Below, in pieces: positions 9,689 to 63,103 of a stretch of 64,000 nucleotides of DNA. The stretch covers positions 13,620 through 77,619 of the forward strand of contig CAWAAX010000025.1 of assembly GCA_963780225.1 (NCBI GenBank), in the 5' to 3' direction. Within the stretch, counting starts at the first letter, position 1. Each line of letters begins with the position of its first letter. A model generated the notes under the pieces. It was given only the letters and a program-made list of their open reading frames with translations, was not told the origin of the DNA and ran no database searches. Both the position numbers and the translations under genes were made by a program. The DNA is from an uncultured bacterium (GTDB lineage Bacteria > Edwardsbacteria > AC1 > EtOH8).

Positions 9689-9876
9689 CACAGAGGCTCA
9701 GAGACACAGAGACTGTTCAATATGTCATCCTGAGTTGGGCATCGTGCTTGGCAAGCCGAAGGATATTTCTTTTCACACAGAGACGCTAAGACACAAAGGT
9801 CTTCAATATCATTCCGCAATGTCCTCTCGTAATGTCATCCTGAGCTGACTATCTTGCCTGACAAGTCGAAGGATAT
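9689..9876. repeat. Composite REP-like cluster: two octamer triads and two 43-bp GTCATCCTGAG..CGAAGGATAT elements
   Basis: Octamers at 9689-9712 and 9776-9799; 43-bp copies at 9724-9766 and 9834-9876. Confidence 0.8.
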
Positions 9877-9929
9877 CGTGCAAGTATTTGCCATTAGTAA
9901 TTAGCAATTACCAAACAAGGGGGGTAGCC

Positions 9930-12041
9930 ATGAAACGCATGATCTCCCTAACAGCGCTGATAATTTGCTCTTTTACAATTTCTTTTGGGGCAACCCAGAC
10001 CTGGCGGTTGACCAATGATGCATATAAAGACACGTTACCGAAAATTGTGTTTGACAATGCTGGGAATGTGTGGGTTGCTTGGTTATCGAACACGCAATTA
10101 GTTTATAGAAAATATGAAACCAATGTATGGTCAGGGTCTGAAACAATAACCACGGATGGTATTGCCCATAATATTTTCAGTCTTGTTAATGACCGGTTTA
10201 ACAACAAGATATGGGCAACCTATGACAGTGAAGGTTATGTGCTCTCAAAGACATATACTGGCAACTGGTCGCCGCCTTTTTATATTTCAGATGACGCGTA
10301 TTTAAACACCTTTAGTTGGCATCGGGCCTTGTTTTCTTGTGCCGACACGATAGGGAATGTACATTTTTTATGGTGCGCGCTAGTACCTAATTTCTTTCAC
10401 CAGGCAATTTTTTTAAGAAGTTATCATAATGCTGTGCGGGATACGATCGAGAAGATCACAACGTCCAATACAACGATAGATTTACATTACCTTTTTGATG
10501 CAATAGCAGTTCCTTCTCAACGGCCGCTGGTGCTGGATAGCAATGAAAGCTATACCCAAGACTGGCGTACACAAGCGACGCGAATATACCAGTATAAACT
10601 CAATAATTTCTGGTCTACAAGCACTGTTGTTTACTTTTTTGTAGTTTCTGAGGGACTATACTATGGTGAACATAATAAACCGATCGGTCTGAGGTTTATT
10701 GATGGACAAAACGCGTTGGTAGCATATACTACTGGCGGCTTGGGTACGGGGCAGGACTCCCTGTGGTGCAAGAAGTATAATTTAATAACGGGTCTTTTCG
10801 ACACGGCGTATTCTGTACAAATAGGCCAATATGTTCATTCGGGCGCTTTCAGTAAAACAGGGAGAGCTACGATTGCCTGGAGCAACAGCCACGGAATCTA
10901 TCTCAATGAATACGGCGACACAGCCTGGTCGGCTTCGCCGGTGAGGATCTCGGACACTCTTCTGCAAAATTGCATCAATCCGGATATCGAGATCCGGAAT
11001 GACAGCACCATTTGGGTGTGCTACCAGAACGACGGGGATATATACATTACTATGTTAGGCGAACCCGATTCAATCCCTCCTGCCGCGATAACTACATTAA
11101 ATGCGATTTTACCAACTTGTTTGACAATAACCCTGCAATGGACAGCGGTCGGGGATGACAGTGTCCTCGGGAGAGCAAATAGCTATGATATTCGGTATTC
11201 CACAGCGGTTATCAGCGATTCAACGTGGGGAAGCGCAACAAATGTAACCGGCGAACCAACACCCCAACAGTCTGGATTGCTTGAACACTACATTGTAACT
11301 GGGTTGGAACCGGGGACAAAATATTATTTTGCAATCAAGGTTGCGGATAGAGTTTCAAACATATCGGAATTATCAAATGTCGCCAGCAGTACAACATCGC
11401 TGGATACGACGGCCCCTGCCGCGACAACTACTTTATGCGATAGTTTGATCACGGCAACTACGGTTGTGCTTAAATGGATCGCAGTAGGTGATGATGGTCT
11501 GGTTGGCCAAGCATCGACATATGATCTTAGGTATTCAACGACGTTTATTGATTCATCGTGTTGGACAAATGCAAATATAGTCGTCGGTCTAAAGTCTCCT
11601 CATGTTTCTGGCGCATTGGAATCATTTCTCGTAACCGACCTGATACCGAATACCAGCTACTATTTTGGGTTGAAAGCTGCCGATGAAGTTTACAATGTTT
11701 CGGGTTTATCAAATATCATCAGTTGTAAAACACCTGCCGTGCCTGACACCACAACCTCACCAACTGGCATAGTATCGACGTTACAAGATGATTTCAAGGT
11801 ATGGCCAAATCCAGCAAGTCAGTTCATTACCATTTATTGTTGTTTAGGACAAAACCAGCCTGCCATGGCATTTGTTTATAATATATATGGCGAGCAAGTC
11901 AAGAAGCTCTATATAAATGGACCAACAACATCTGGGTCACTGATTAATGATGCCGGCAAGCCGCTTTCGACAGGTGTTTACTTCATACGGTTACAGTCAG
12001 GCGGACGAGCAGTAATTAAAAGAATTTCTATCATAAAGTAA
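9930..12041 (+). CDS. Secreted protein with two fibronectin type III domains and a T9SS-type C-terminal domain; low GC
   Basis: Signal peptide MKRMISLTALIICSFTISFG; two D..P.A.T.L..L.W.AVGDD..G.A..YD.RYST repeats; ends KVWPNPAS..VYNIYGEQVK..GVYFIRL. Confidence 0.85.
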   Translation: MKRMISLTALIICSFTISFGATQTWRLTNDAYKDTLPKIVFDNAGNVWVAWLSNTQLVYRKYETNVWSGSETITTDGIAHNIFSLVNDRFNNKIWATYDSEGYVLSKTYTGNWSPPFYISDDAYLNTFSWHRALFSCADTIGNVHFLWCALVPNFFHQAIFLRSYHNAVRDTIEKITTSNTTIDLHYLFDAIAVPSQRPLVLDSNESYTQDWRTQATRIYQYKLNNFWSTSTVVYFFVVSEGLYYGEHNKPIGLRFIDGQNALVAYTTGGLGTGQDSLWCKKYNLITGLFDTAYSVQIGQYVHSGAFSKTGRATIAWSNSHGIYLNEYGDTAWSASPVRISDTLLQNCINPDIEIRNDSTIWVCYQNDGDIYITMLGEPDSIPPAAITTLNAILPTCLTITLQWTAVGDDSVLGRANSYDIRYSTAVISDSTWGSATNVTGEPTPQQSGLLEHYIVTGLEPGTKYYFAIKVADRVSNISELSNVASSTTSLDTTAPAATTTLCDSLITATTVVLKWIAVGDDGLVGQASTYDLRYSTTFIDSSCWTNANIVVGLKSPHVSGALESFLVTDLIPNTSYYFGLKAADEVYNVSGLSNIISCKTPAVPDTTTSPTGIVSTLQDDFKVWPNPASQFITIYCCLGQNQPAMAFVYNIYGEQVKKLYINGPTTSGSLINDAGKPLSTGVYFIRLQSGGRAVIKRISIIK

Positions 12042-12046
12042 GAACT

Positions 12047-13018: not shown

Positions 13019-13022
13019 CCAA

Positions 13023-13090
13023 TGTTTGAACGTTTGCCACCGCCGCTGGCGGGGTGCCTCCAACGGAGGCAAAACGTTTAAAAGGTTCAC
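13023..13090. repeat. Short nested hairpin cluster
   Basis: CCGCC-GCT-GGCGG and TGCCTCC-AAC-GGAGGCA between AACGTTT..AAACGTT. Confidence 0.5.
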
Positions 13091-13093
13091 AAT

Positions 13094-13771: not shown

Positions 13772-13774
13772 ATA

Positions 13775-14389: not shown

Positions 14390-14437
14390 TCAAACAAGCA
14401 AATAAATATAAAATATTAGTTTTTCAGAAAGGACCAC

Positions 14438-15571: not shown

Positions 15572-15574
15572 CCA

Positions 15575-15702
15575 AAAGACTAAAAACTAAATTCTAAACT
15601 CTAAACAAATTTTAATTTCAAAGATCAAATAGCTGGTAGTTTAATGCTTCGTATTTATTGCTTTGGGCTTGTTTAGGGTTTAGTGATTGTGTTTTAGAGT
15701 TT
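15575..15702. repeat. Inverted pair of 7-nt periodic tracts
   Basis: AAAGACT-AAAAACT-AAATTCT-AAACTCT-AAACAA (15575-15608) matches the reverse complement of 15669-15702 at 25/34 positions. Confidence 0.75.
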
Positions 15703-15714
15703 ACAGAATATTGT

Positions 15715-16347
15715 ATGCAAAAAAGTAAAGGGCTGTTCGTCAGCTTTGAGGGCATCGAGGGCTGCGGGAAGACCACCCAGGCCATGCTCCTGGCCAAGTG
15801 GCTGAAGAGCCGGGGACATCAGGTCATAGTCACCCGGGAGCCGGGCGGGACGCCCCTGGCCGAGAAGATCCGCAAGGTGCTGCTGGACAGCAGGAACCAC
15901 CAAATGTCCCCGCTGACCGAACTGCTGCTGCTGCAGGCTTCGCGGGCTCAGCACCTGGCCCAGGTGATAATCCCAGCGCTGAAGGCCGGCCAGATAGTGG
16001 TCTGCGACCGCTTCGCCGATTCCTCCACCGCCTACCAGGGCTACGGCCGGGGGATGGACCTGGAGATGGTGAAACAGCTGAACCAGATAGCGGTGGACGG
16101 CTGCTGGCCCAGCCTGACCCTGGTCTTTGACCTGCCGGTGGAACAGGGCTTTGCCCGGGCTTCCAAAAGGAAGCGGGCCCTGGACCGGATGGAAAAACAA
16201 GAGAAAGCCTTTCACCAAAAAGTGCGGCGGGGCTTTCTGGCCATAGCCAAAGCCGAACCGGACAGGGTAAAGGTGCTGGACGGAAGTTTTCCTCCGGACG
16301 TGATCCAGGCCGCAGTCCGGCAGTTGGTGCTGGGAAGGCTGAAGTAG
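15715..16347 (+). CDS. tmk: Thymidylate kinase
   Basis: FVSFEGIEGCGKTTQ, TREPGGT, CDRFADSSTAYQGYGRG. Confidence 0.97.
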   Translation: MQKSKGLFVSFEGIEGCGKTTQAMLLAKWLKSRGHQVIVTREPGGTPLAEKIRKVLLDSRNHQMSPLTELLLLQASRAQHLAQVIIPALKAGQIVVCDRFADSSTAYQGYGRGMDLEMVKQLNQIAVDGCWPSLTLVFDLPVEQGFARASKRKRALDRMEKQEKAFHQKVRRGFLAIAKAEPDRVKVLDGSFPPDVIQAAVRQLVLGRLK

Positions 16348-16394
16348 ACCATTCCCGGCAAACTTAAGCCAAGTTCAAAAAGGATCCGACAAAT

Positions 16395-18059: not shown

Positions 18060-18140
18060 GATCAGAGCCTGTCATATTTACCCAAGGGGACAAGATCAAC
18101 ATGATTCGCTAACAAGAAAACCTATCGCTATATCCAGACA

Positions 18141-18244
18141 ATAAGGACACGGCTCGCCGTGTCTCAACCGATAATAAATGTAAGGGCAATTCACTCGTCC
18201 GACGAAGCCTTTAATGGCGGCGCAGTAGGATGAATTGCCCCAAC
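18141..18244 (+). repeat. REP doublet; the second palindrome is interrupted by a 37-nt insert
   Basis: GACACGGC-TC-GCCGTGTC, then GTAAGGGCAATTCA[18194-18230]TGAATTGCCCCAAC; intact copy at 29892-29919. Confidence 0.8.
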
Positions 18245-18261
18245 CCCAACCAGGAGAAACA

Positions 18262-18888
18262 ATGGGCTTCAGCCTGATACCCAAGGAAGTGCAATTCTTT
18301 GACCTGTTCGACAAGCAGGCCGAGATCATCACCATCGCCGCCGCCCATTTCAGGGAAATGGCCGAAAAGGGGCAGTTCGACGACGCCAACATCGAAAAGA
18401 TGAGCGACATCGAGCACAGCTGCGACCTGATCACCCACGACATCATCGACAAGCTCAACCGCTGTTTCATCACCCCCTTTGACCGGGAGGACATTTACGC
18501 CCTGGCCCACGAACTGGACGACCTGGTGGACATGATCTATTCGGTATCCAAGCGGATGCGGATGTACAAACTGAACACCGTCAACAAGGACATGGTCCAG
18601 TTTTCCTTGCTGATCCAGCAGTCGGCCTGCGCCCTGGCCAAGGCCCTCAGCGGCCTGCGCCACAGCAAGCACCACAAGCCGATCCTGGTCAGCTGCATCG
18701 AGATCAACCGGTTGGAGAACGAGGGCGACCACCTGCGGGACACGGTGATCGGCAGCCTGTTCGACAATTCCACCGACCCCATCGCCACCATCAAGTGGAA
18801 GGAGACCTTTGAGGGGGCCGAGACCTGCCTGGACATCTGCGAGGACGTGGCCAATATCATCGAATCCATCCTGGTGAAGAACAGCTGA
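18262..18888 (+). CDS. DUF47 / PhoU-like Pit accessory protein
   Basis: FITPFDREDIYALAHELDD, INRLENEGD; upstream of pit; RBS AGGAG. Confidence 0.92.
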   Translation: MGFSLIPKEVQFFDLFDKQAEIITIAAAHFREMAEKGQFDDANIEKMSDIEHSCDLITHDIIDKLNRCFITPFDREDIYALAHELDDLVDMIYSVSKRMRMYKLNTVNKDMVQFSLLIQQSACALAKALSGLRHSKHHKPILVSCIEINRLENEGDHLRDTVIGSLFDNSTDPIATIKWKETFEGAETCLDICEDVANIIESILVKNS

Positions 18889-18898
18889 CGCATAAATT

Positions 18899-19894
18899 AT
18901 GACGCCCTTCATATTCTTTCTGATAGTCTTGGCCCTGTTCTTCGATTTCCTGAACGGCTTTCACGACTCGGCCAACTCCATCGCCACCATAGTATCCACC
19001 CGGGTGCTCTCGCCCCGCCATGCGGTGCTTTGGGCGGCCTTCTTCAATTTCATCGCCTTTTTGTTCTTCGGGCTGCACGTGGCCGGGACCATCGGCCGGG
19101 GGATTGTGGACATCGCGGTGATGGATTCCCACATCATCTTCGCCACCCTGATCGGGGCCTGCATCTGGGATCTGATCACCTGGTACGTCGGGCTGCCCAC
19201 CAGCTCCTCCCACGCCCTGATGGGCGGCCTGATAGGGGCGGCCCTGGTGAAGGCCGGAGCCGGTGCCCTGCTTTGGGCGGGGATAATGAAGACGGTGGCC
19301 TTCATCTTCATTTCCCCGGTGCTGGGGATGGCTTTGGGGCTTTTGAACGGAGTGGCGGTGCACTGGATCTTCCGCCGGGCTTCGCCCCGGGACGTAGATC
19401 ATATCTTCCGCAAGGGCCAGCTGGTATCGGCGGCCTTTTACAGCCTGGGGCACGGCGGCAACGACGCCCAAAAGACCATGGGGATCATCGCCGGGCTGCT
19501 GTTCTCGGCCGGGCTTTTGGGCCAGACCTTTCACATCCCCCTGTGGGTGGTGCTTTCCTGCCACGGGGCCATCGCCCTGGGCACCATGTCCGGGGGCTGG
19601 CGGATAGTGAAGACCATGGGGCAGAAAGTGGCCAAGCTGCAGCCGGTAGACGGATTCTGCGCCGAGTTCGGGGCGGCCACCTCTCTGTTCATCTCTTCCT
19701 TCATGGGCGTGCCGGTCAGCACCACCCACACCATCACCGGGGCCATCATGGGGGTGGGCAGCCTGAAACGGATGAGCGCGGTGCGCTGGGGGGTGGCCGG
19801 CCAGATCCTGTGGGCCTGGGTTTTGACCATTCCCTGTGCGGCCGCCATCTCGGCCCTGGCCTATGTGCTGGCCCGGATGTTCATCAAAGCCTGA
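18899..19894 (+). CDS. pit: Inorganic phosphate transporter, PiT family
   Basis: NGFHDSANSIAT, GLPTSSSHAL, HGGNDAQKTMG, PVSTTHTITG. Confidence 0.96.
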   Translation: MTPFIFFLIVLALFFDFLNGFHDSANSIATIVSTRVLSPRHAVLWAAFFNFIAFLFFGLHVAGTIGRGIVDIAVMDSHIIFATLIGACIWDLITWYVGLPTSSSHALMGGLIGAALVKAGAGALLWAGIMKTVAFIFISPVLGMALGLLNGVAVHWIFRRASPRDVDHIFRKGQLVSAAFYSLGHGGNDAQKTMGIIAGLLFSAGLLGQTFHIPLWVVLSCHGAIALGTMSGGWRIVKTMGQKVAKLQPVDGFCAEFGAATSLFISSFMGVPVSTTHTITGAIMGVGSLKRMSAVRWGVAGQILWAWVLTIPCAAAISALAYVLARMFIKA

Positions 19895-19907
19895 TGTCCT
19901 TTTAGTT

Positions 19908-20396: not shown

Positions 20397-20406
20397 GGAC
20401 GATTAT

Positions 20407-20433
20407 TATAAGGAAACCATGAAGGACAGGAAT
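20407..20433 (+). repeat. Half copy of the TATAAGGAAACCA element
   Basis: TATAAGGAAACCATGAAGGACAGGAAT, near-identical to 41628-41653. Confidence 0.65.
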
Positions 20434-20572
20434 TGTTTTATTCAAGTTGTCTGGTGCTCAAGATAAATCATTTTAATCAGCGTTAATCTGCGTCCCGTAA
20501 AATAATCCAGGTTAATTCTCCAATCAGAAAAAACACAGAACGATAAACAACTAAACTCACAGGAGCATCAAA

Positions 20573-25986: not shown

Positions 25987-26049
25987 TACACAAGGAATCT
26001 CTTTTTGTTCAGGAAAAACAGAGACAGTTATAACTTAGGTTTATAACGG

Positions 26050-26360
26050 TTATGTTCTTTTCTTTTTGTACCGCCAAACAGAAAAGAACCAAAAGAAAAA
26101 GCTCGTCGCTTAAAACTCTCCTGGCCACGCTTACGCCCTGCCTAGGCAAGACTTCGGCTGGCAAGCAGGGCTTCAGCGGGCCCGCGTTGCGCTTCTCGTT
26201 GCTGGCGGGCTTGTCTGAACTCGGGCTTCGGCCAAGCCCTCAAACAGGCCAGACAAGCTTTTTCCGCCATCAACTGCGATGCTCACTGATCGTTTTAACG
26301 CGACAACCGGGGTTGGCACCTATTGTTCATCCTGCTTTTCGAGATGATTGAATAATCATT
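26050..26360. repeat. Dispersed nested-hairpin element, copy A (carries a ~60-bp insert)
   Basis: Near-identical to 44237-44488 apart from 26122-26183. Confidence 0.9.
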
Positions 26361-27949
26361 ACAAAGCTAAAAGAGAAAATATCAAACTTATCCGCTCAAT
26401 ACTATTTTTCCTGCTGGTTCTTCCGGCCTTAGCCGGCATCGCCAGGGCCGACATTCGGAATTGGCAGCAGTTCAAAGCCTTTGGCGGCAGCACCCTGGCC
26501 GGAGAGGTCAGGACCCTGATCGCCGATGTCCGTTATCTTTACGCCTTCACCGGCTCCGGCGGGGTCCGCTACGACAAACTGCTGGACAAGTGGGATTTTT
26601 CCTTCCTGCCCCAGGCTCCCCCGTCGAACTTTCAGTTCGCCGGGCTGGACCAGATGACCGGGGATTTCTATTTTGTCTTGGACCAAAGCGTTACGCCCTA
26701 CAATTCTCTTTCCAAGTTCTATTACTTCCCTGTCAAGTTCCCGGCTCCGGTGCTGGGCTTAGCCTTTGACGGCAATGGTATCTGGGCCAGGACCCAAAAC
26801 GGAGTGTATTTCTGCGACCGCTGGACCAGGCAGATATCCTTGTCCGCCGAAAGCGGGATAGTAAGGGAGTGGCAGGGCCCGGCCGACTTGAGGCAGCTCA
26901 GAACCGATGTCCGCTTGCTGGGCCTGGCTCCTTATCAGATGATGGACGAGTGGGCAGTAAACCACCCCATCTCTGCCCTGGCTTACGAAAAGTTCGGGAC
27001 CGAGGCCTGGGTATGGTACCGGGGACTGGGGTTGTGGAAGTATGATACCTTTTCCCGCAAATTAAACCAGGCCACCAAGGGCTTTTTGGCCAGTGTTGGA
27101 GTGAATGGCATCGCATCATACGGGAATGCAATGGTCCTGGCAGGGCAGGGAGGGATCACCTTGATCGGGGCCGAAGGCGAGCGTTGGCAACAGATGAACC
27201 GGATGTTCAATGCCGATCTGGCCGGGCAGTTGATCCTGGCGGCGGCCTTTGATGATAGGGAGGTCTTTGCCGGAACCGGTTCGGGGATCCTGGCCTTCAA
27301 AAGGGGCGACGATTTCGTCCGGAACATCACCAGCTACGACGGCCTGCCCTCCGGCCGGGTAAACTGCCTGTACCTGGAAGGCGACAGCCTGTGGGCCGGC
27401 ACCGACTACGGACTGGGATTGTACCAGCGGAGCCTAAAGACCACCACCAGCCTCTGGCCGCAGCTGGAGAACCATAAGATCAGCGGCATCAGCGCCGACC
27501 AAAAATACATCTACCTGGCCACCGACCGGGGGGGCGTGAAATTAGACCGGCAGGATAGCCTTAAGCCCAGGCATTATGCTGACCCCGATCCGGCCCTGTT
27601 GGGAGAAGCAATGGCGGCGGTCGTCTCCGAAGACACCATCACCTGGTGGCTGGGCCAGGACTTTCTGCTGGCCGGAAACAAAAGGGATAACAGCTACCGG
27701 ACCTTCCTTCGCTCCGGGAATTATGCCGCCGGCCAGGGGCTTTGTCTGGCGGCGGATCAGGGAAACGTCTGGATCGGCACCGACAACGGACTGGTGCGCT
27801 TCGTCAAAAGCCGGAATCAGTTTCTGGTCTACCATGCAGCCGACGGTCTGCTGGACGAACAGGTGTGGTCGGTGCATTCGCTGAACGGTTATCTGTGGGC
27901 CGGGGGGCCGAACGGGGTCAGCCGGTTTTGTTTTAAGAATGAGGATTAG
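26348..27949 (+). CDS. Secreted beta-propeller protein (two-component regulator propeller-like repeats)
   Basis: Signal peptide ..LAGIARA; DGLPSGRVNCL..LWAGTDYGL, VWIGTDNGL, DGLLDEQVWS..LWAGGPNGVS. Start uncertain. Confidence 0.78.
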   Translation: MNNHYKAKRENIKLIRSILFFLLVLPALAGIARADIRNWQQFKAFGGSTLAGEVRTLIADVRYLYAFTGSGGVRYDKLLDKWDFSFLPQAPPSNFQFAGLDQMTGDFYFVLDQSVTPYNSLSKFYYFPVKFPAPVLGLAFDGNGIWARTQNGVYFCDRWTRQISLSAESGIVREWQGPADLRQLRTDVRLLGLAPYQMMDEWAVNHPISALAYEKFGTEAWVWYRGLGLWKYDTFSRKLNQATKGFLASVGVNGIASYGNAMVLAGQGGITLIGAEGERWQQMNRMFNADLAGQLILAAAFDDREVFAGTGSGILAFKRGDDFVRNITSYDGLPSGRVNCLYLEGDSLWAGTDYGLGLYQRSLKTTTSLWPQLENHKISGISADQKYIYLATDRGGVKLDRQDSLKPRHYADPDPALLGEAMAAVVSEDTITWWLGQDFLLAGNKRDNSYRTFLRSGNYAAGQGLCLAADQGNVWIGTDNGLVRFVKSRNQFLVYHAADGLLDEQVWSVHSLNGYLWAGGPNGVSRFCFKNED

Positions 27950-29852: not shown

Positions 29853-29919
29853 GGACGAGGCAGTCCTGGTCCTAACGGGAACAGATAACAAGTAAGGGCA
29901 ATTCATGAATTGCCCCAAC
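29849..29919 (+). repeat. REP doublet (GTAG/GTAA-headed palindromes)
   Basis: GTAGGGACGAGGCAGTCCTGGTCCTAAC (supplies the greA TAG) and GTAAGGGCAATTCATGAATTGCCCCAAC. Confidence 0.85.
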
Positions 29920-31579: not shown

Positions 31580-31581
31580 GG

Positions 31582-31674
31582 CAATTGACAATTAACAGTG
31601 AACACTTAACGGCCCTTCGACAATGCTTCGATAAACTCAGCCTAACAGTTCAGGGCAAGAAAACGTCAAACGTC
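31582..31674. repeat. Repeat hotspot: heptamer tract, self-nested CTTCGA..TCAG element, AAACGTC x2
   Basis: CAATTGA-CAATTAA-CAGTGAA-CACTTAA; CCCTTCGACA[..GCTTCGATAAACTCAGC..]GTTCAGGGCAAG. Confidence 0.75.
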
Positions 31675-32542: not shown

Positions 32543-32616
32543 ATCCATAGCCCATACATTAATGTATGGGCTATGGATGCCCAACGGTAAACCCCCCGCC
32601 ATTGGCGGGGGGTTTA
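32543..32616. repeat. Two adjacent perfect palindromes (the second may act as a terminator)
   Basis: ATCCATAGCCCATACATT/AATGTATGGGCTATGGAT (36 bp, no loop) and TAAACCCCCCGCCA-T-TGGCGGGGGGTTTA. Confidence 0.85.
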
Positions 32617-32633: not shown

Positions 32634-33660
32634 GGTTTAAAGGTCGAAAAAAGTTGCTAAAGCTGCTCTAACTTGTTGTAAAATAAGGGAAAACGACAGA
32701 TATTTTACAATGCATTATAAAAATGCCCTCATTGTGGTTCTTATCGGACCAAACGTTTTGGTTTTCAAAAGAGTCAACAGCGCTATCGCTGCCAAGAATG
32801 TTTATCTGTTTTTCGCAACAAACCAAGGCCACAAAAAGTAATCCGTCTTTTATGGAATAAATATGTCTTGGGGCGTCAAACGTTAAATTCCCTGGCAAAA
32901 GAGTTCGGGCTCAGCAGAAAACGTATTCAGCGATACTTCTCATCCCTACCCTACTGTAATCCATCGCTGGTAAATCTAAAGTCCCCTTTGGTTCTGGTAG
33001 CAGATGCTACTTTTTGGGGACGAGGCTATGGAGTAATCGTCTTTCGCGCTCCGGACCTAAAGCGCAATCTGTGGTGGACCGAGATACGAACCGAGACGGC
33101 TGATAGCTACCACCAGGGACGTCAATTATTACTGGATCATAATATTCGCCCATCAGCGGTGGTTATTGACGGAAAGCCCGGTATTGCTGAAGTTTTTCAG
33201 GATGTCCCCGTCCAGATATGCCATTTCCATCAAATCGCCATCGTCCGCCGTTATGTTACCAAATGGTCAAAATTGCCTGCCGCACAACAGTTGCTCTCTT
33301 TAGCGGAAACCTTGCCGAATACTAACGAGAATACTTTCCAAACCGAACTGGCGGCTTGGTATGACCGCTGGCGCCAGTTTCTTTCTCAAAGAACCTTTAA
33401 CCCAGACACCGGCAGATCGCACTTTACCCATAAACGGTTACGTTCCGCATACCACAGTCTGCAACGGCACCTTAAATACCTTTTCACATACCAGAGATTT
33501 ACCGAGCTGGGAATACCTAATACCACTAATTCCTTGGAAAGTACATTTGGGTATCTCAAACACTTATTAGAAGTCCACCGAGGAATAGCACGACCACTTC
33601 GTTACAAGTTTATCTGTAATATCTTGACTAAAAATAGCAACTAAAAACGGCCTTTAGACC
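32634..33660 (+). mobile_element. 1027-bp IS256/Mutator-like insertion sequence
   Basis: Imperfect 26-bp TIRs GGTTTAAAGGTCGAAAAAAGTTGCTA / TAGCAACTAAAAACGGCCTTTAGACC; flanking AACATTTC / AACATTTT (7/8 target duplication); lower GC. Confidence 0.88.
32710..33644 (+). CDS. IS256-like DDE transposase with N-terminal Zn ribbon (needs a -1 shift after codon ~4)
   Basis: VADATFW, VIDGKPG, QICHFHQ (CxxH), TTNSLESTF; in-frame upstream KCPHCGS..YRCQEC from 32721. Confidence 0.85.
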
Positions 33661-37465: not shown

Positions 37466-37497
37466 AGTAAATCTTGCGGTTAAAAGGATCGATCATA

Positions 37498-37620
37498 CAA
37501 CCTCAACCCCGCTTCGTTTGTAAAATGCTTGCATATCTCAGTGCATGCTTCACTTCCCCTTCTCTTACATCACGATGGTCCCAATTTATCCAAGAGAAGG
37601 GGACAGAGGGGATGAGTTAG
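37498..37620. repeat. REP-like inverted repeat between the HDIG gene and ybeY
   Basis: TCCCCTTCTCTT (37555-37566) / AAGAGAAGGGGA (37592-37603); imperfect outer arms CAACCTCAACCCC / GGGGATGAGTTAG. Confidence 0.65.
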
Positions 37621-37634
37621 AAGATCCAATATTA

Positions 37635-41588: not shown

Positions 41589-41627
41589 ACATAATTAGAG
41601 GAGCAGTTTCCAACAGGGGGAATTATC

Positions 41628-41695
41628 TATAAGGAAACCAGGAAGGCCAGGAAATATTTATTGTCAAGGATTCATGGTTTCATGGATTCCTTATA
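41628..41695. repeat. Imperfect inverted repeat element in the rfaE1 leader
   Basis: TATAAGGAAACCAGGAA.. / ..TTCATGGATTCCTTATA; half copy at 20407. Confidence 0.75.
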
Positions 41696-41745
41696 AAAGA
41701 CATGTCCGTATAAATAAATGACATTTATAATTTACTGAAAGCCTT

Positions 41746-42750
41746 ATGAATCAAAACAAATACAAAATCAGCCCCAAACGGGCCGACCAGCTCATCAACG
41801 GATTTGCCCGGCGCAAAGTAGTTGTCCTGGGCGACCTGATGCTGGACGAATACCTGTTCGGGGCGGTCTCCCGGATCTCGCCCGAGGCCCCGGTACCGGT
41901 GGTGGAGGTCAGCCGGGAGGAGTTCCATCTGGGCGGGGCGGCCAACGTGGCCTGGAACATCGCGGCCCTCAAGGGACAAGCCTTTCCGGTGGGGACGGTG
42001 GGCAGCGACCGGGCCGAGAAAATGATGCGCCGTGAGTTCAGAACCAAGAAGATATCCGAGCTGGGGCTGGTGAACCAGTCCGGCCGGCCCACCACCATCA
42101 AGACCAGGATCGTGGCCGGCCACCAGCAGGTGGTGCGGGTGGACCGGGAGCACCGCCAGGACATTTCCCCGGCCGTCCAGCAAAAAGTGATAGCGGCCCT
42201 GGAGAAACTTGTTCCTTTAGCCGATGCCATTCTGATCGAGGACTACAACAAGGGCCTGATAACCATTCCGGTGCTGGAAGCCGCATTGAACCTGGCTAAA
42301 AAACACAAAAAGATCGTCACGGTGGATCCCAAGTTCAACCATTTTCTGGATTTCAAGGGGGTGACGCTCTTCAAACCCAACATCCACGAGGCCGAGCGGG
42401 CGCTGGGGGTCAAGATTGCCAATTCCGAAGATATTGTCAAAGCCGGGCAATCCCTGCTCAAGCGGATAGAGGCCCGGGCGGTGCTGATCACCGCCGGCGA
42501 CCAGGGGATGTACCTTTTTACCTCCGGCCAGGGGGAGGTCTTCCGGATACCCACCGCCGCCCGGGAAGTTTACGATGTCTCCGGGGCCGGCGACACGGTG
42601 ATTGCTGTGGCCACTTTGGCCCTGTGCGCCGGGGCCAGCCTGCTGGAAGCGGCGGTGACGGCCAACCACGCGGCCGGGGTGGAGGTCTCCAAGTTCGGGG
42701 TGGCGGAGGTGACGGCGGAAGAACTTAAACAGGCGTTGAGGAACTGGTGA
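41746..42750 (+). CDS. rfaE1: D-glycero-beta-D-manno-heptose-7-phosphate kinase
   Basis: GDLMLDEY..RISPEAPVPVV, GGAANVA, DYNKG, VYDVSGAGDTV. Confidence 0.95.
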   Translation: MNQNKYKISPKRADQLINGFARRKVVVLGDLMLDEYLFGAVSRISPEAPVPVVEVSREEFHLGGAANVAWNIAALKGQAFPVGTVGSDRAEKMMRREFRTKKISELGLVNQSGRPTTIKTRIVAGHQQVVRVDREHRQDISPAVQQKVIAALEKLVPLADAILIEDYNKGLITIPVLEAALNLAKKHKKIVTVDPKFNHFLDFKGVTLFKPNIHEAERALGVKIANSEDIVKAGQSLLKRIEARAVLITAGDQGMYLFTSGQGEVFRIPTAAREVYDVSGAGDTVIAVATLALCAGASLLEAAVTANHAAGVEVSKFGVAEVTAEELKQALRNW

Positions 42751-44048
42751 TGATCTTTGCCTTGGGAATGGGATGCTATCATCTGATCACATTCATGGCC
42801 CTCCTGCTGGGGTGGCCATATTTGCTGGCGGCGGTGATCTTTGGCCATCAGGAAAAATGGCGGCAGCGGCTGGGCTGGCTGTCTCAGTCCGCAGGGCGGC
42901 CGGTCTGGATCCACGGGGCCTCGGTGGGAGAGATGGGGGTGATCGCGCCCTTCTTTGCCCAGCTGAAGACTCTTTTGCCCGAGAAAAACATCGTCCTGTC
43001 CACCATGACCGCCACCGGGCAAAAGAGGGCTCACGAGATCTTTTCCACCAAGGCGGCCGGGATATTTTTCCTTCCCCTGGATTTCTGGTTCGCCCAAAAG
43101 CTGGCCGTCAGCAGGATAAACCCCGGCGCCCTGGTCCTGACCGAGACCGAGCTCTGGCCCAACCTGATTAGGCAGTGCCAAAGGCAAAACATTCCGGTGT
43201 TCCTGGTCAACGCCCGGCTTTCGGCCAGGTCCTTCAAATACTATCACCCCCTGCGCTTCCTGTTCGGGCCGCTGCTGAAATCCCTTCAACTGATAGCCTG
43301 CCAGAGCAAAGAGGACGCGGAACGCTACCTGGCTTTGGGTGTCCGGGAAGACATCGTCACCGTTACCGGCAATCTGAAATACGACGGGATCAAGGGCCCG
43401 GTCTCTGCAATAGAGAAACAAGAGTTAAGGAAGGACTTCGGTCTAAGTCCTAAAGACCTGGTGTTTGCGGCCGGGAGTACAAGGGAGGGGGAGGAGATTG
43501 TTATACTTGATGCCTGGCGGGAAAGCCTAAAAAATGGGAAATGGGAAATTGGAAACTGGAAATTGATCATAGCGCCGAGGCATCCGGGGCGGTTCTCCGA
43601 AGTGGAAAAACTGCTGATCTCCCAAAACTTGATTTATTGCAAACGAAGCGGCCAGAAGAGCGGCGGGACTTCCAACAATTTTGATGTCTTGCTACTGGAC
43701 ACCATCGGCGAGCTGGTCAACGCCTACGCGGCCTCGGACATTGCTTTTGTCGGCGGCAGCCTGGTGCCGGTGGGGGGCCACAACCCCCTGGAACCGGCGG
43801 CCCTGGGGCTTCCGGTGGTCTTCGGCCCCCACATGTTCAACGCCAAAGAAAGCGCCGAGGGGCTTTTGGCCTGCGGCGGGGCAGTGCAGGTGAAGGATGC
43901 CGGGGAACTGAAAAAGGTCCTGGCAGAATTCCTGGGCCGCGAAGAAAAGAGGCTTACTGCCGGTGCCAAGGCCCGCAGTTTGGTGGATTCCAAGCGCGGG
44001 GTTTCCAAGGTCACGGCGGAACTGGTGACGGGAAGGCTTAACGGGTAA
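42747..44048 (+). CDS. waaA: Kdo transferase
   Basis: WIHGASVGE, ETELWPN, NARLS, TGNLKYD, APRHP, GGHNPLEPA. Confidence 0.96.
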   Translation: MMIFALGMGCYHLITFMALLLGWPYLLAAVIFGHQEKWRQRLGWLSQSAGRPVWIHGASVGEMGVIAPFFAQLKTLLPEKNIVLSTMTATGQKRAHEIFSTKAAGIFFLPLDFWFAQKLAVSRINPGALVLTETELWPNLIRQCQRQNIPVFLVNARLSARSFKYYHPLRFLFGPLLKSLQLIACQSKEDAERYLALGVREDIVTVTGNLKYDGIKGPVSAIEKQELRKDFGLSPKDLVFAAGSTREGEEIVILDAWRESLKNGKWEIGNWKLIIAPRHPGRFSEVEKLLISQNLIYCKRSGQKSGGTSNNFDVLLLDTIGELVNAYAASDIAFVGGSLVPVGGHNPLEPAALGLPVVFGPHMFNAKESAEGLLACGGAVQVKDAGELKKVLAEFLGREEKRLTAGAKARSLVDSKRGVSKVTAELVTGRLNG

Positions 44049-44236
44049 AGACAGGAGCGCCTCCGCTAAAGCTATGGCGCTTGAAGAAGGCCGACATTAA
44101 AGCGTAAGCGGATTAACATGATTTATTTCCAGGTACAAATCAAGGAACAGTAGAAGAATGGAAAATGACTATCTAACTTGATCAGGAAAAGTAGAAAGAA
44201 TATAGTGGATCTGGCAAAAAAGCAGATTTTACCCGA

Positions 44237-44488
44237 TTATGTTCTTTTCTTTTTGTACCGCCAAAAAGCAAAGAACCAAAAGAAAAAGCTCGTCGCTTAA
44301 AACTCTCCGGGCGTTGCGCTTCTCGTTGATGGCGGGCTTGTCTGAACTCGGGCTTTTGCCAATCCCTCAAACAGGCGCAGACAAGCTTTTTCCGCCATCA
44401 ACTGCTATGCTCACTGATCGTTTTAACGCGACAACCGGGGTTGGTACCTATTGTTATCCATATCTCCTTAGTTGATTGGATAATCATT
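44237..44488. repeat. Dispersed nested-hairpin element, copy B
   Basis: Stems GTCGC.TTAAAAC/GTTTTAA.CGCGAC, GTTGATGGCGG/CCGCCATCAAC, GCTTGTCTG/CAGACAAGC. Confidence 0.9.
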
Positions 44489-44517
44489 TAATGGAATATA
44501 TAGATCCTCGATTCAAT

Positions 44518-46569: not shown

Positions 46570-48519
46570 ATGATAAAGATCACCCTGCCGGACGGCAAGA
46601 TCAAGGAATTTGAACCGGGCGTCTCCAGCCTGGATATCGTCAAATCAATAGGCTCAGGGCTGGCCAAAGCATCGCTGGCGGCCACTTTGGACGGCAAGCC
46701 CATCGACCTGTCGGCCAAGGTCGACCGCGACGCCAAATTCTCCGCTTTGACCTTCGACTCGGAGCTGGGCAAGGAAGTGCTGCGCCACTCGACCAGCCAC
46801 TTAATGGCCCAGGCCGTCACCGGGCTTTTCCCCGGCACCAAGGCGGCCATCGGTCCGGCCATCGAGGACGGATACTACTATGACTTCGACCGGAGTGAGC
46901 CCTTCTCCTCCGATGACCTGGCCGCCATCGAGAAGAAGATGGCCGAGCTGGCGTCCCAGGATATTCCCATCGTCCGCCAGGAAATGCCGAGGGAAGCCGC
47001 CCTGGAGCACTTTAAAAAGCTGGGTGAGCAGTACAAGGTAGAGCTGATTGAGGCCCTGCCCCAGGGCGAGGTCATCTCCTTCTACCAGCAGGGCGATTTC
47101 ATAGACCTCTGCCGGGGGCCGCACCTGCCCTCCACCGGACGGATCAAGCACTTCAAGCTGCTGTCGGTGGCCGGGGCCTACTGGCGGGGCGACGAGCGCA
47201 ACAAGATGCTGCAGCGGATCTACGGCACCGTCTTTGACAAGAAGGAGCAGCTGGACGAGCATCTGAAGATGCTGGAGGAGGTCAAGAAGCGGGACCACCG
47301 GAAGCTGGGCCGGGAAATGGACCTGTTCTCGCTGCACGAGGAGGCCGGCCCGGGCCTGGTCTACTGGCACCCCAAGGGCGGCCGGATGCGGGTGCTGATA
47401 GAGAACCACTGGCGCCAGCGGCACTATGAAGAGGGATACGACATCCTGTTCACCCCCCACGTGGGCAAGGAGTGGCTGTGGCAGACCTCGGGCCACCTGA
47501 ATTTCTACCAGGACGGGATGTACTCCCCGATGGAACTGGACAAGGCCAACTATTACATCAAGCCGATGAACTGCCCGTTCCATATACTGATCTACAACAC
47601 CAACGCCCATTCCTACCGGGAACTGCCGTTGCGCTGGGCCGAGCTGGGCACGGTCTACCGTTACGAGCGGAGCGGGACCCTGCACGGCCTGATGAGGGTG
47701 CGGGGCTTTACCCAGGACGACGCCCACATCATCTGCACCCCGTCCCAGATCGACGATGAGATCCTGCGGGTGCTGGATTTCTCGCTGTCTATGTTCAACG
47801 ACTTCGGGTTCAAGGACGTCAAGGTCGAACTGTCGGTGCGCGACCCCAGGAACCTGGACAAGTACGCCGGATCGGAGGAGATGTGGGTCAAGGCCGAAGA
47901 ATCACTGGTGAAAGCTCTGAATGCCCGGAGCGTCGATTATGAAAGGATGGAGGGCGAGGCGGTGTTCTATGGCCCCAAGATAGACATCAAGATCAAGGAT
48001 TCCCTGAATCGTCTGTGGCAGTGCAGCACCATTCAGTTCGATTTCAACGAGCCGGAACGCTTCGGCATGACCTACATCGCCGAGGACGGCAAGGAGCATA
48101 GGCCCTACATGGTCCACCGGACCCTGCTGGGAAGCATGGAGCGTTTCTTTGGGGTGCTGATAGAGCATTACGCCGGCAACTTCCCGCTGTGGCTGGCCCC
48201 GGTCCAGATCATGGTGATGAACATCACTGACGCCCAGGCGGACTATGCCAAGCTTATAGCTGATCGCTTACAGCTTTCAGGTTTCCGGGTCAAGCTGAAC
48301 CTGGGGGGCGAAAAGATCGGGGCCAAGATCCGCGACGCCGAGATGGGGAAGATCCCTTACATGGTCATAGTGGGGACCAAGGAGATGGAGCAGGGCAAGG
48401 TCTCGCTGCGCCGCCATGGCCAGGGCCCCTTCGACAAGCTCATGGCAGGGGACCTGGGGCAGATGACGGTGGAGGAACTGGCGGAGCGGCTGAACAGGGA
48501 AGTTGAAAGCAAAAAGTAG
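46570..48519 (+). CDS. thrS: Threonine--tRNA ligase
   Basis: ITLPDG, RHSTSHLMAQAV, DLCRGPHLPST, RDHRKLG, KPMNCP, RGFTQDDAH, FYGPKID. Confidence 0.98.
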   Translation: MIKITLPDGKIKEFEPGVSSLDIVKSIGSGLAKASLAATLDGKPIDLSAKVDRDAKFSALTFDSELGKEVLRHSTSHLMAQAVTGLFPGTKAAIGPAIEDGYYYDFDRSEPFSSDDLAAIEKKMAELASQDIPIVRQEMPREAALEHFKKLGEQYKVELIEALPQGEVISFYQQGDFIDLCRGPHLPSTGRIKHFKLLSVAGAYWRGDERNKMLQRIYGTVFDKKEQLDEHLKMLEEVKKRDHRKLGREMDLFSLHEEAGPGLVYWHPKGGRMRVLIENHWRQRHYEEGYDILFTPHVGKEWLWQTSGHLNFYQDGMYSPMELDKANYYIKPMNCPFHILIYNTNAHSYRELPLRWAELGTVYRYERSGTLHGLMRVRGFTQDDAHIICTPSQIDDEILRVLDFSLSMFNDFGFKDVKVELSVRDPRNLDKYAGSEEMWVKAEESLVKALNARSVDYERMEGEAVFYGPKIDIKIKDSLNRLWQCSTIQFDFNEPERFGMTYIAEDGKEHRPYMVHRTLLGSMERFFGVLIEHYAGNFPLWLAPVQIMVMNITDAQADYAKLIADRLQLSGFRVKLNLGGEKIGAKIRDAEMGKIPYMVIVGTKEMEQGKVSLRRHGQGPFDKLMAGDLGQMTVEELAERLNREVESKK

Positions 48520-48600
48520 CCTGGGGATAGAGGCGTTGAAACGGGAGGCGCATAATAAATCTCAAGAAAAATACCGGCTTATAGCTGATCAAAATTTTAG

Positions 48601-57375: not shown

Positions 57376-57397
57376 AAATTATTATTATTTGATTTTG

Positions 57398-58633: not shown

Positions 58634-58636
58634 AAT

Positions 58637-60459: not shown

Positions 60460-60997
60460 CATCATCGCGGCCTCGACGGCTTTGCTGCTGGCCTTGCCGC
60501 TGCTGTTACTGGTGGCCTTGGCCATCGCCTTGGAATCCCGGGGCGGGGTGTTCTTTCTGCAGGACAGGATCGGCCAGGGCGGAAAACCCTTCAAAATATT
60601 CAAGTTCCGGACCATGGTCCCCAACGCCGAAAACAAGGGGCCGCTGCTGGCGGTCCGGAACGATCCCCGGGTGACCGGGGCGGGGAAATTTTTGCGCCGC
60701 TGGAGCCTGGACGAAATTCCCCAACTGCTGAACATCCTCAAAGGCGAGATGAGCCTGGTGGGGCCCCGGCCGGAGATCCCGCCCCTGGTGGCGGACTACA
60801 GCCCCTGGCAGCGCCGGGTGCTTTCGGTAAAACCCGGGCTGACCGGATTTCCCCAGGTGATGGGGCGCGACGATCTGGCCCTGGAGACAAAATTAAGGCT
60901 GGATAATTATTACACCGGTCACAGCAGCTTTTGTTTTGACCTGTGGATAATCTGGAGAACGGCAGTGACAGTAATAACCGGGAAAGGAGCCTTTTGA
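60443..60997 (+). CDS. Initiating phosphoglycosyl (sugar) transferase
   Basis: KRCFDI, FKFRTM, DPRVT..GKFLRRWSLDEIPQL, MSLVGPRP. Confidence 0.95.
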   Translation: MKRCFDIIAASTALLLALPLLLLVALAIALESRGGVFFLQDRIGQGGKPFKIFKFRTMVPNAENKGPLLAVRNDPRVTGAGKFLRRWSLDEIPQLLNILKGEMSLVGPRPEIPPLVADYSPWQRRVLSVKPGLTGFPQVMGRDDLALETKLRLDNYYTGHSSFCFDLWIIWRTAVTVITGKGAF

Positions 60998-62871
60998 TGA
61001 ACCTGGACCGAGAAAAACGCTGGGGGCTGGCATTGACAGATGTTCTGCTGCTGAACCTGGCCCTGGGGGGGGCTTTTGCCCTGCGCTTTGAAGGGAACAT
61101 TCCGATCGTCTTCACCTCCAACTTTCTGTACATCGCCCTCTTTATTACCCTGGTCAGGGTGGCCTCCTTTTGGCATCTGGGGGTCTACAAGGGAGTGTGG
61201 CGCTACGTGGGGATGAGCGACCTGGTGACCATCCTTAAGGCCATCTCCCTGGGCTCGATCATCATTCTGGCCGCCACCTGGACCGTGGTGCCCGGCCTGG
61301 GCTATCCCCGCAGCGTGATCATCATCGAATGGCTGGGCGACGTGATGCTGATAGGCGGGATCAGGATGGCCTTCAGGCTGTGGTCCCAGGGCCGGCATAA
61401 AGCCTCCTTAAAAGACAAGGCCTGCAGCCGGGTGCTGATAGTGGGGGCCGGGGACGCCGGCGAGATGGTGGCCCGCCAGATGCTGGCCCATCCGGAATAC
61501 GGCTACCAGCCGGTGGTCTTTGCGGACGACGACCCCCAAAAGCAGGGCAAAAAGATCCACGGCATAACCATCGGCGGAGGCCGGAAGGACATCTTAAAAC
61601 TGGTGGAGCAGAAGGGGGCCGATACCATAGTGATAGCCATTCCCTCGGCCCCGGGGCCGGTGGTCAAGGCAGTGGTGGAGCAGTGCCAGCAGGCCCAGGC
61701 TAAAGTTCAAGATAGTCCCCGACATCAAGGAGATCATCTCGGGCGAGGTCAGCATCAACCAGATCCGGGACATAGAGCTGGAGGACCTGTTACGGCGGCC
61801 GGCCATCAACGTCAACCTGGAGGAGATAGCCGGATACTTAAGCGGCAAGACCATTTTGGTAAGCGGGGCCGGAGGCTCCATCGGATCGGAGCTCTGCCGC
61901 CAGATAGCCACCTTTAATCCGGGAAAAATTGCCGCCAGATAGCCACCTTTAATCCGGGAAAACTCCTTTTAGCCGGCAAGGGCGAGAACAGCCTGTACCA
62001 CATCGCCGGGGAGCTGGCTTTGAAATCCAAAGCTCTGAAACTGGAGACCCTGATCTGCGACGTGGCCGACGCTTCAAGGGTGGAGGCCGTCTTCAAAAAA
62101 TACAAACCCCAGGTGGTGTTCCACGCCGCGGCCCACAAGCACGTTCCGATGATGGAGCAGAACCCGGGCGAGGCGGTCAAGAACAACATCTTTGGCACCA
62201 AGACCCTGGCCGAGGCGGCCTTAAAGCACGGGGCCGAACGGTTTGTGCTGATCTCCACCGACAAGGCGGTGAACCCCACCAGCGTGATGGGGGCCACCAA
62301 GCGGATCTCGGAGAAGGTGGTGATGAGCCTGAACGGGAAAAAGAAGACCAAATTTTTGGCGGTGCGGTTCGGCAACGTGCTGGGCTCCAGCGGCAGCGTG
62401 GTGCCGCTGTTCAAAAAACAGATCGCGGCCGGGGGGCCCATCACCGTTACCCATCCCGACATGGAGCGCTACTTTATGACCATCCCCGAGGCGGTGCAGT
62501 TGGTGATCCAGGCCGGGGCCATGGGCCGGGGCGGCGAGGTGTTTGTGCTGGACATGGGACAGCCGGTGAAGATAGTGGACCTGGCCAGGGACATGATCAA
62601 ACTCTCGGGGCTTACGCCGGACACCGACATCAAAATAGAGTTCACCGGCCTGCGCAAGGGGGAAAAGCTGTATGAGGAGCTGCTGACCGCCGAGGAGGGG
62701 ACCACCGCCACCAAGCACGCCCAGATCTTCATGGTTAAAGGCCGGCACGCCAGGATCAAGGAACTGCCCAGGCTGCTGCCCCGGCTGTACCAGGCGGCGC
62801 TGACCGGGGACGAGGCCAAGGTGGTGGCGGCGATACAGAAGGTGATACCGGGTTTCCGCAAGGAGACCTGA
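60997..62871 (+). pseudogene. CapD/PglF/WbpM-type UDP-GlcNAc 4,6-dehydratase, interrupted by a +1 C (~61695) and a 35-bp duplication (61895-61962)
   Basis: VLIVGAGDAG; shifted frame reads KFKIVPDI..IELEDLLRR..ILVSGAGGSIGSELCRQ; then HAAAHKHVP, ISTDKAVNP, VRFGNVLGS, GEKLYEEL. May be assembly error. Confidence 0.85.
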
Positions 62872-62897
62872 GTACCAATAGGGCCGGGCTTTTCCTG

Positions 62898-63103
62898 CCA
62901 CCAAGACACAAAGACACCAATGGAATTCCGATCTCCCCCTCACACGGAGCCACGGAGAACGCAAAGGCATGATCTTGGAATCTTTGCGGCTTAGTGTGAT
63001 GTAAAAAAGCCCCACCATTCGGATCCCCCTCACACGGAGCCACGGAGAACGCAAAGGCATGATCTTGGAATCTTTGCGGCTTAGTGTGATGTAAAGCCCC
63101 ACC
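62898..63103. repeat. Octamer tract plus two tandem 90-bp hairpin units
   Basis: CACACGGAGCCACGGAGAACGCAAAGG..TCTTTGCGGCTTAGTGTGATGTAAA at 62941 and 63031. Confidence 0.9.

Follow-up and report, generated by a model that had tools for sequence, protein, structure and literature searches.

We analysed a stretch of 64,000 nucleotides (nt) of an uncultured Edwardsbacteria bacterium, hereafter the window, which spans positions 13620-77619 of contig C25 (CAWAAX010000025.1) in a 2.33-Mb assembly of 27 contigs that is 94.5% complete (GCA_963780225.1; here G000). We lean, if only slightly, towards reading the window as a sample of a genome-wide, layered population of small selfish repeats in which a putative trans-acting activity moves a hairpin element of 21-46 nt with the core TTCGRY..CTCA. 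The repeat families are dispersed, nested in one another, and gained or lost between close relatives, and this supports the view that they behave as mobile or copy-prone DNA. The initial annotation of this DNA had described several short repeat families that nest inside one another and enter essential genes in frame. Its observation was confirmed, apart from one of three in-gene sites; its interpretation was half right, as mobile, nested, in-frame DNA and the absence of a local enzyme were borne out and the diversification of proteins by motif writing is unsupported. The repeats lie among ordinary housekeeping and cell-envelope genes (Pfam on 65 open reading frames (ORFs) of the window), which include proS, thrS (46570-48519), waaA (42747-44048), greA, purE, purC and a long polysaccharide cluster.

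The hairpin element is composed of a 3-8-bp stem, the motif TTCG(A/G)(C/T), a middle of 2-40 nt in which a further, inner hairpin can be enclosed, CTCA and the second, complementary arm of the stem; CAAG or CAGG usually follows. With a stem of at least 4 bp it is found in 57 copies in G000 and in none in simulated sequence; the numbers are 181 and 3 for a stem of at least 3 bp. The pattern search required a stem and cores were therefore also counted without this requirement. At least three complementary flanking pairs surround 88 of 171 short cores, whereas the three simulations gave 0 of 43, 2 of 39 and 2 of 56. One and the same core is enclosed by at least 15 different pairs of complementary stems (93 elements are 30 nt long or shorter), which is covariation. 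The copies are located within tracts of heptamers or octamers, in the loops of other hairpins and inside one another. The subfamily TTCGGCTAACGCTCA..CGGCG is always found within ATCTGCG tracts, and TGGTTCGACACACTCACCA within TATAAGGAAAC hairpins. In the window, a 38-nt long form with the inner hairpin ATCC-TTCGGC..CTCA-GGAT occupies 9727-9764 on the reverse strand and a second long-form copy, absent in G001, is found at 9837-9874 on the same strand. Both had been described as reversed relative to the copies at 31613 and 48427, which is correct, and they are direct copies of each other. The 49 nt at 31611-31659 (forward strand) comprise a hairpin element inside another hairpin element, between heptamer tracts of which the upstream one (31582-31610, forward strand, CAATTAA type) was detected by Tandem Repeats Finder (TRF). 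A minimal 24-nt element is located in thrS (48424-48447, forward strand). Repeats within repeats, a claim of the initial annotation, are seen in this nested pair, in the hairpin at 18176-18243, which is the hairpin of 29892-29919 plus a 37-nt insert, and in copies of a miniature inverted-repeat transposable element (MITE) that bear one- and two-level inserts (see below).

All families named at the outset are real and exceed their Markov controls, and de novo k-mer counts and a BLAST of the genome against itself recover the same families without prior knowledge. The motif controls were three order-5 Markov simulations of the 2.33-Mb genome. TATAAGGAAAC is present 42 times in G000 (1, 0 and 2 in the simulations), CCCCTTCTCTT 39 times (3, 0 and 1), a doubled CACAGAGA-type octamer 88 times (never in the simulations), GTAAGGRC..GYCCCNAC hairpins 23 times (1, 0 and 0), GTCATYCTGAG 32 times (0, 3 and 0) and the MITE core 28 times (0, 0 and 0). 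For tandem arrays the control was one order-3 simulation. At a TRF score of at least 40 there are 53 arrays of period 7 and 24 of period 8, with none of either in the simulation, while periods 5, 6, 10, 11 and 13 yielded 1, 6, 17, 13 and 12 arrays versus 0, 0, 7, 10 and 7. An inverted partner accompanies 19-21 of 82 intergenic tracts (about a quarter), where controls gave 3-11; among tracts within genes it accompanies 2 of 30. These copy counts are raised slightly by paired contig ends (C1/C5, C12/C4, C20/C22, C18/C13, C5/C7 and others), which amount to ~68 kb of G000, are 94.5-99.9% identical (most 97-98%) and probably reflect two strains binned together.

The thrS gene of G000 is 24 nt longer than that of four congeners, the extra nucleotides lying between CAG and GGGGAC. 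This insert, the minimal element at 48424-48447, is in frame and encodes GPFDKLMA (residues 619-626 of the threonyl-tRNA synthetase, ThrRS). It is absent from all four congeners and from eight other family members in which the site is covered. G008, a member of another genus whose ThrRS is 66% identical, carries the same 24 nt with two differences at the same codon boundary of thrS, and its closest relatives G010 and G013 have no insert. This pattern corresponds either to two insertions at one site or to one old insertion followed by many precise losses; the process is thus site-specific under either history. A contig of an independent sequencing run spans the insert without a gap, so that it is not an assembly artefact. 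In an AlphaFold model of ThrRS residues 619-626 fall in a segment (618-625) with a predicted local distance difference test score below 50, between strands 611-615 and 627-632, and the insert is thus predicted to form a low-confidence loop between two strands. A further stretch of thrS, the heptamer-like sequence at 48251-48279 (forward strand), was rejected as an insertion: it has equal length in 13 relatives and lies within the helix 554-569. An exact match of 14 nt links this stretch to positions 48578-48591. From the three in-frame sites first proposed for thrS and waaA, that at 48251 is accordingly withdrawn, and the thrS insert and the waaA tract at 43532-43563 are retained.

The waaA tract (43532-43563, forward strand, AAATGGG type, detected by TRF) is in frame, encodes the peptide KNGKWEIGNWK and adds 7 amino acids relative to genera without a tract: in six genomes of two other genera waaA has no tract and its product is 7 amino acids shorter. 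At the orthologous site the unit is AAATGGG in G003 and G004, AAAAATC in G001 and G008, ATTCAAA in G002, GCAGAAT-like in G005 and G011, TTCCAAA in G010 and TAGAAAT in G013. The comparison of in-gene tracts with relatives covered waaA, guaA, ftsY and leuS. Across species the guaA site carries AATTCAA, AATTCAG, GAAGGCA or AATGCAA, or no tract, and the ftsY site GAATTCA, AAATTGC, AAATTTC or AAATCTC, or none; at least 6 different units are found in leuS among 11 genomes of the family. Each gene thus displays 4-6 different units (leuS at least 6) among 11-16 family genomes, and the tracts remain perfectly periodic at one orthologous site although species differ in their unit. Three of the in-frame tracts, those of leuS in G000 and of ftsY in G004 and in G001, contain a hairpin element of 42-48 nt in reversed orientation, which is also in frame. 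The statement that repeats enter essential genes with the frame kept therefore holds for thrS and waaA, and extends to leuS and to ftsY of relatives. TRF detected 32 period-7 arrays (score of at least 36) in called genes of G000, for example in lpxK, dusB, hypF, two heptosyltransferase genes and a wecB-like gene.

These in-gene repeats bear on the initial interpretation, according to which trans-acting enzymes encoded elsewhere (RAYT, GIY-YIG, DUF559, GxxExxY or four-helix-bundle proteins) write motifs whose function is to diversify proteins. The tract peptides indeed vary between species, as this would predict. They are hydrophilic and change freely, and such peptides, like an insert in a low-confidence loop of ThrRS, fit tolerated passengers and do not speak for adaptive diversification. 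The inserts affect housekeeping enzymes and no benefit of diversification is evident. Tolerated selfish DNA in surface loops fits the data better than writer enzymes that diversify proteins, a proposal that we consider highly improbable also for the reasons provided below by the search for its enzymes.

The filled and empty sites were defined by comparison with G001 and G003, the congeners used for the 64-kb comparison, which are collinear with the window at ~85-90% identity. Contigs from public runs represent related populations only (best share 0.29) and cover the window partially. The congeners show several empty sites. As the motifs also exceed their Markov background, neither of the two grounds named in advance for refuting the initial observation applies. 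The tract-plus-element unit at 9689-9880, with its octamer tracts at 9689-9713 (CACAGAGA type, forward strand, TRF) and 9776-9800 (the second tract of the duplicated unit, forward strand), is found once in G001, twice in the window and three times in G003. The first of these tracts carries a reversed hairpin element in G001 and G003 and is empty in the window. The window is also the empty site near 20486, in the TATAAGGAAAC-ended repeat with a TTAATCNGCG tract (20397-20530), where both congeners have a 26-nt hairpin element, and in the TATAAGGAAACCAGGAA..TTCCTTATA tract hairpin (41624-41700), whose loop contains a 49-nt nested hairpin element in G003. Conversely, both elements of 31611-31659 (49 nt) are missing from G003, which keeps the flanking tracts, and the site of the MITE at 26046 is empty in the same genome (43-nt spacer). 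The composite at 18176-18243 (forward strand), a GTAAGGGCAATTCA/TGAATTGCCCCAAC hairpin whose loop is interrupted by 37 nt and which is present in six genome copies, is absent at this site in G001 and G003. The uninterrupted GTAAGGGCAATTCATGAATTGCCCCAAC hairpin after greA (29892-29919, forward strand) is present in G001 and its place is taken in G003 by a GTAGGGGCGAT-type hairpin. The CCCCTTCTCTT..AAGAGAAGGGG hairpin with an outer GGGGATGAGTT arm (37555-37618, FAM3) is absent from G001 and an octamer-armed element occupies the same spot in G003; contigs of two public runs have 31 nt instead of 37446-37626. The inverted pair of CTAAACT-type heptamer tracts at 15575-15730 (TRF, FAM4), which has a ~70-nt centre and no gene inside, is replaced at this intergenic spot by a GAATTCA x5 tract in both congeners. 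Finally, at the position of the octamer tract followed by a ~100-nt unit repeated twice (62898-63100, TRF) both congeners have a spacer of 83-85 nt that contains heptamer-like repeats.

Such comparisons also address the explanation that the repeats are functional cis-elements (terminators, mRNA stabilisers or protein-binding sites) that are kept in place by selection and are not mobile. Many copies are located just 3' of genes, as at 29892 after greA and at 18176 after an S41 protease gene, and compensatory change conserves the stems. In congeners, however, corresponding positions have or lack the repeats or are occupied by unrelated elements, and this argues against selection for a fixed position, as do copies in coding sequence in either orientation and self-nesting. 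We regard this explanation as very improbable.

The hairpin element is not confined to this lineage. At least 126 stretches of the species-genome collection contain its 22-nt form. Among the matches listed (80 loci) are Acidobacteriota, Chloroflexota, several proteobacterial classes, Planctomycetota, Verrucomicrobiota, Bacteroidota, Nitrospirota, Chlamydiota, Actinomycetota, Saccharibacteria, Parcubacteria and others. In the other phyla, again among the matches listed, the 22-nt form is found within heptamer tracts or in tandem or nested with itself. It is present in 34 viral-contig stretches as well. Among 251 high-quality genomes, 89 matched a looser pattern, whose reversed control gave 0-2, and 12 genomes from six families have at least 12 matches. 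A literature search with the nucleotide and peptide strings of the element found no paper containing them in the library searched.

The initial annotation had stated that no candidate enzyme is encoded in the window, which is correct: the profiles PF13366, PF05635, PF04480, PF01541 and PF01797 have no G000 match in window coordinates, all their matches lying elsewhere in the genome, and Pfam identified none in the 65 window ORFs. G000 encodes 9 GxxExxY, 13 four-helix-bundle, 6 DUF559, 5 small GIY-YIG and 4 Y1 genes, so that all five small gene families invoked by the writer-enzyme proposal are present. Their flanks are built from the same types of repeats. GxxExxY genes lie between octamer-type or TATAAGGAAAC arms (flanks inspected by reading), and about 9 of the 13 four-helix-bundle genes between inverted short tandem repeats, some of whose units are also found in genes (AAATGGG, AAGGCAG and GCTTATA). 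The proposal is weakened by genomes rich in the element that lack the genes. Four-helix-bundle genes were excluded as the source of the hairpin-element enzyme by their absence from G021 (49 pattern matches) and G136 (35), and GxxExxY genes by their absence from G021 and from three of five element-bearing genomes of the candidate phyla radiation (CPR). A reverse transcriptase acting as "writer", in the manner of a diversity-generating retroelement or of telomerase, was likewise rejected, as PF00078 has no match in G000 at its 94.5% completeness; the claim that enzymes write short motifs is not supported. Y1 transposases and small GIY-YIG genes remain as weak candidates. The comparison across genomes covered these two families, the four-helix-bundle genes and GxxExxY, and DUF559 was considered within G000. 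The Y1_Tnp domain is found in 12 of 12 genomes with at least 12 pattern matches (six families), versus 149 of 251 overall, and small GIY-YIG genes, a very common family, in five of five element-rich genomes tested. These leads are weak because related genomes are not independent. Y1_Tnp is absent from G010, G013 and G062, which have 4-8 pattern matches, and elements are present within 600 nt of one of five small GIY-YIG genes and of no consistent member of the other families.

Two further observations concern these gene families. Y1_Tnp-like domains with weak profile matches are found in unusually long open frames (~320-340 amino acids) of several element-rich genomes (G021, G136, G183, G149, G085 and G116), and the long form is also present in G129 and G181, which have no pattern match. 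The small CPR genomes G041-G045 (0.5-1.1 Mb) encode up to 7 four-helix-bundle, 5 Y1-like and 5 GxxExxY genes.

A number of results weigh against a dedicated activity that moves the hairpin element. Neither neighbourhood (in G000) nor co-occurrence tied an enzyme to it. Only 8 of 208 tracts are within 500 nt of any small candidate gene and 200 are not, a figure that also counts against writer enzymes, and the 12 genes found beside 13 element clusters of G000 are ordinary housekeeping genes, except for one GIY-YIG gene. The clean filled/empty junctions (five clean pairs) show no target duplication longer than 2 nt and no consistent target or consensus. In the 68 kb of contig-end overlaps no insertion/deletion polymorphism of the hairpin element was found; the changes detected there are one 7-nt unit in a tract and one 24-nt repeat unit. 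No public-run contig lacked the thrS insert where cover existed. Up to 7 nt of the element's 3' end are also found at the empty thrS site, a resemblance that also suits template switching without a dedicated enzyme.

In a rival explanation no dedicated enzyme is involved: replication slippage would make and homogenise the tracts, and the elements would spread by template switching or short-patch gene conversion between look-alike tracts and hairpins, with host replication and repair only. The absence of target duplications, the single-unit slippage event between strains, the resemblance of the empty thrS site to the element ends, the fruitless enzyme searches and the tie of element subfamilies to particular tract types (TTCGGCTAACGCTCA..CGGCG to ATCTGCG, TGGTTCGACACACTCACCA to TATAAGGAAAC hairpins) all favour it. 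It hardly explains why a near-identical 22-nt sequence is found over many phyla and viral contigs, for which a sequence-specific agent or frequent horizontal transfer would be the easier account. The thrS gene has no tract homology that could serve conversion, and plain slippage does not predict the strong excess of periods 7 and 8 over 5, 6, 10, 11 and 13. An origin from host processes alone is in our opinion unlikely, though it deserves serious attention.

The reading that we prefer, selfish repeats with a trans-acting activity for the hairpin element, can be described in four layers. The first consists of the tandem arrays of 7-8-nt units, which are probably kept homogeneous by slippage or conversion; roughly one in four intergenic arrays belongs to an inverted pair. 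The second is the 21-46-nt hairpin element, which lands preferentially in tracts, hairpin loops and its own copies and may owe its movement to a trans-acting, sequence-specific activity whose substrate is single-stranded or hairpin DNA. Palindromes of the repetitive extragenic palindrome (REP) type, some paired with their own Y1 (RAYT-like) genes, constitute the third, and a classical MITE the fourth. Within genes only net changes in multiples of three would be tolerated, and the in-gene copies would be the survivors of purifying selection: in frame, stop-free and in surface loops, which they may lengthen and vary as a by-product. A stronger proposal, which we put forward tentatively and consider rather doubtful, is that the stem-TTCGAC-AAG-CTCA-stem-CA(A/G)G hairpin (21-24 nt) is actively mobile, among the smallest such elements known, present across most bacterial phyla and carried by phages. 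It would be moved by one conserved enzyme that has escaped recognition and targets the single-stranded loops of heptamer tracts and hairpins; the tracts would then be actively regenerated landing pads, and both would continuously remodel surface loops of essential proteins.

The MITE was initially described as a ~250-bp element. It is a real repeat but its size was underestimated: it is an ordinary MITE of ~330 bp that has inverted ends of ~28 bp and target duplications of 6-7 bp and lacks a conserved ORF (38 BLAST pieces, ~30 copies). An alignment of 16 copies displays the inverted ends and the duplications AATGGA, TAGCAT, ATTTTA and TACTTT. A full copy lies at 44162-44497 (forward strand; inverted ends AAATGACTATCTAACTTG.., 6-nt duplication AATGGA) and a copy with a two-level nested insert at 26046-26362 (forward strand). 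The inserts found in MITE copies include a hairpin element. Just upstream of the copy at 44162, a ~75-nt repeat ending in GGATTAACATGATT (44049-44124) is present in ~9-20 copies according to self-BLAST and k-mers, and one public-run contig has 11 nt in its place.

The rule that REPs are mobilised by RAYT transposases was found to apply to part of the palindromes. The REP-type palindrome ATAGCCCATACATTAATGTATGGGCTAT at 32546-32575 (FAM37), of a small family with three copies in the self-BLAST clustering, matches repeats 104-135 nt upstream and 121-152 nt downstream of a Y1 (RAYT-like) gene (C4:226973-227317), and the abundant ATTGCCACGAsCT hairpin flanks another of the Y1 genes. The GTAAGGRC..GYCCCNAC palindromes resemble REPs in size (20-40 bp), in their unpaired GTAG-like head, which is more often GTAA than GTAG, and in their many copies. 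For the GTA(A/G)GGG-headed hairpins no Y1 partner of this kind was found in the assembly: the hairpins at 18176 and 29892 are the best flanking inverted repeat of none of the four Y1 genes of G000 (94.5% complete).

Further differences between the window and its relatives concern genes. A low-GC (0.44) gene at 9888-12041, which encodes a fibronectin-III protein with a type IX secretion system sorting tail and adjoins the repeat cluster 9689-9880, is absent from G001 and G003, where its flanking genes are adjacent. The PHO4 phosphate transporter gene and a neighbouring ORF (18060-19900) are also absent from both (~50-150 nt there); this insertion is bounded by hairpins at 18141-18243. One public-run contig joins 32612 to 33661 via 14 other nt, so that the uncharacterised 258-amino-acid ORF 32868-33644 is missing in a related population. 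A perfect 35-bp tandem duplication (61895-61962) is found between the CoA_binding_3 ORF (60943-61917) and the Polysacc_synt_2 ORF (62020-62871). At this locus the 35 bp are present once in G001 and G003 and the gene is uninterrupted; the duplication thus shifts the reading frame of a capD/pglF-like gene of G000 and divides it in two, although it may also be an assembly error. Scanning the window with Rfam at gathering thresholds gave no match.

If the hairpin element is truly mobile, 22 nt suffice for a DNA parasite to cross phyla and to occupy tRNA synthetase genes, and its enzyme, once found, would represent a new type of DNA insertion. The filled and empty sites, the same site in two genera and the turnover of tract units are material for testing how very small repeats move. 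Tracts and elements also create spurious ORFs and odd peptide inserts (NSKFKIQ, PFDKLRAG and TCPEKG types) in annotated proteins of uncultured bacteria, and their recognition would clean annotation and alignments.

By their features these repeats belong with several systems already described. The small dispersed repeats SDR1-8 of Nostoc punctiforme were reportedly characterised by Elhai and colleagues in 2008, who are said to have left their mode of movement open. They are described as ~21-27-nt hairpin repeats with compensatory stem changes, found in heptamer tracts and self-nested, and the hairpin element resembles this description: it has a ~21-27-nt unit with a compensatory stem and is found within heptamer tracts and nested in itself, also in other phyla. 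An extract of PMC5861425 gives the SDRs as confined to Nostocaceae, whereas the element studied here is found in a non-cyanobacterial lineage and its 22-nt form in many phyla and viral contigs. Its in-frame copies in essential genes and its recurrence at the same site also go beyond the SDRs. The heptamer tracts resemble the short tandemly repeated repetitive (STRR) heptanucleotide sequences that Mazel and colleagues are said to have found in heterocystous cyanobacteria in 1990, as both are dispersed tandem 7-nt arrays of several unit families. They differ from STRR in that many arrays are read in frame as part of housekeeping proteins, that the unit varies between species at one orthologous site and that the lineage is non-cyanobacterial. 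Ogata and colleagues reportedly described in 2000 the Rickettsia palindromic elements (RPEs), inserted in frame in protein-coding genes and tolerated as extra peptide segments. Palindromic in-frame insertion is likewise seen here in thrS, in leuS and in ftsY of G004 and G001. RPEs are roughly 100-150 bp long and lineage-restricted, whereas the inserts found here are of 21-48 nt, well below that size, with a core common to many phyla. Similarity to REPIN-RAYT systems, reportedly treated by Bertels and Rainey in 2011, is found in Y1 genes flanked by their own repeats, for the 32546 palindrome and the ATTGCCACGAsCT family; in contrast, no Y1 gene of this assembly is flanked by the GTAAGGG..CCCCAAC family. 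The palindromes of 20-40 bp whose GTAG-like head is unpaired, and some of which are located in genes, are similar to the GTAG/CGTC-tagged REPs (Di Nocera et al. 2013, PMC3733652), unlike the TTCGRY..CTCA element, which bears neither a GTAG nor a CGTC tag. The MITE agrees with its class (inverted ends, duplications, multiple copies, no transposase) and only its nested small elements are unusual. To these systems the present analysis adds tract turnover at orthologous sites in four genes, same-site recurrence in thrS, clean filled/empty pairs, the exclusion of two candidate enzyme families and the spread of a 22-nt element across phyla and viruses.

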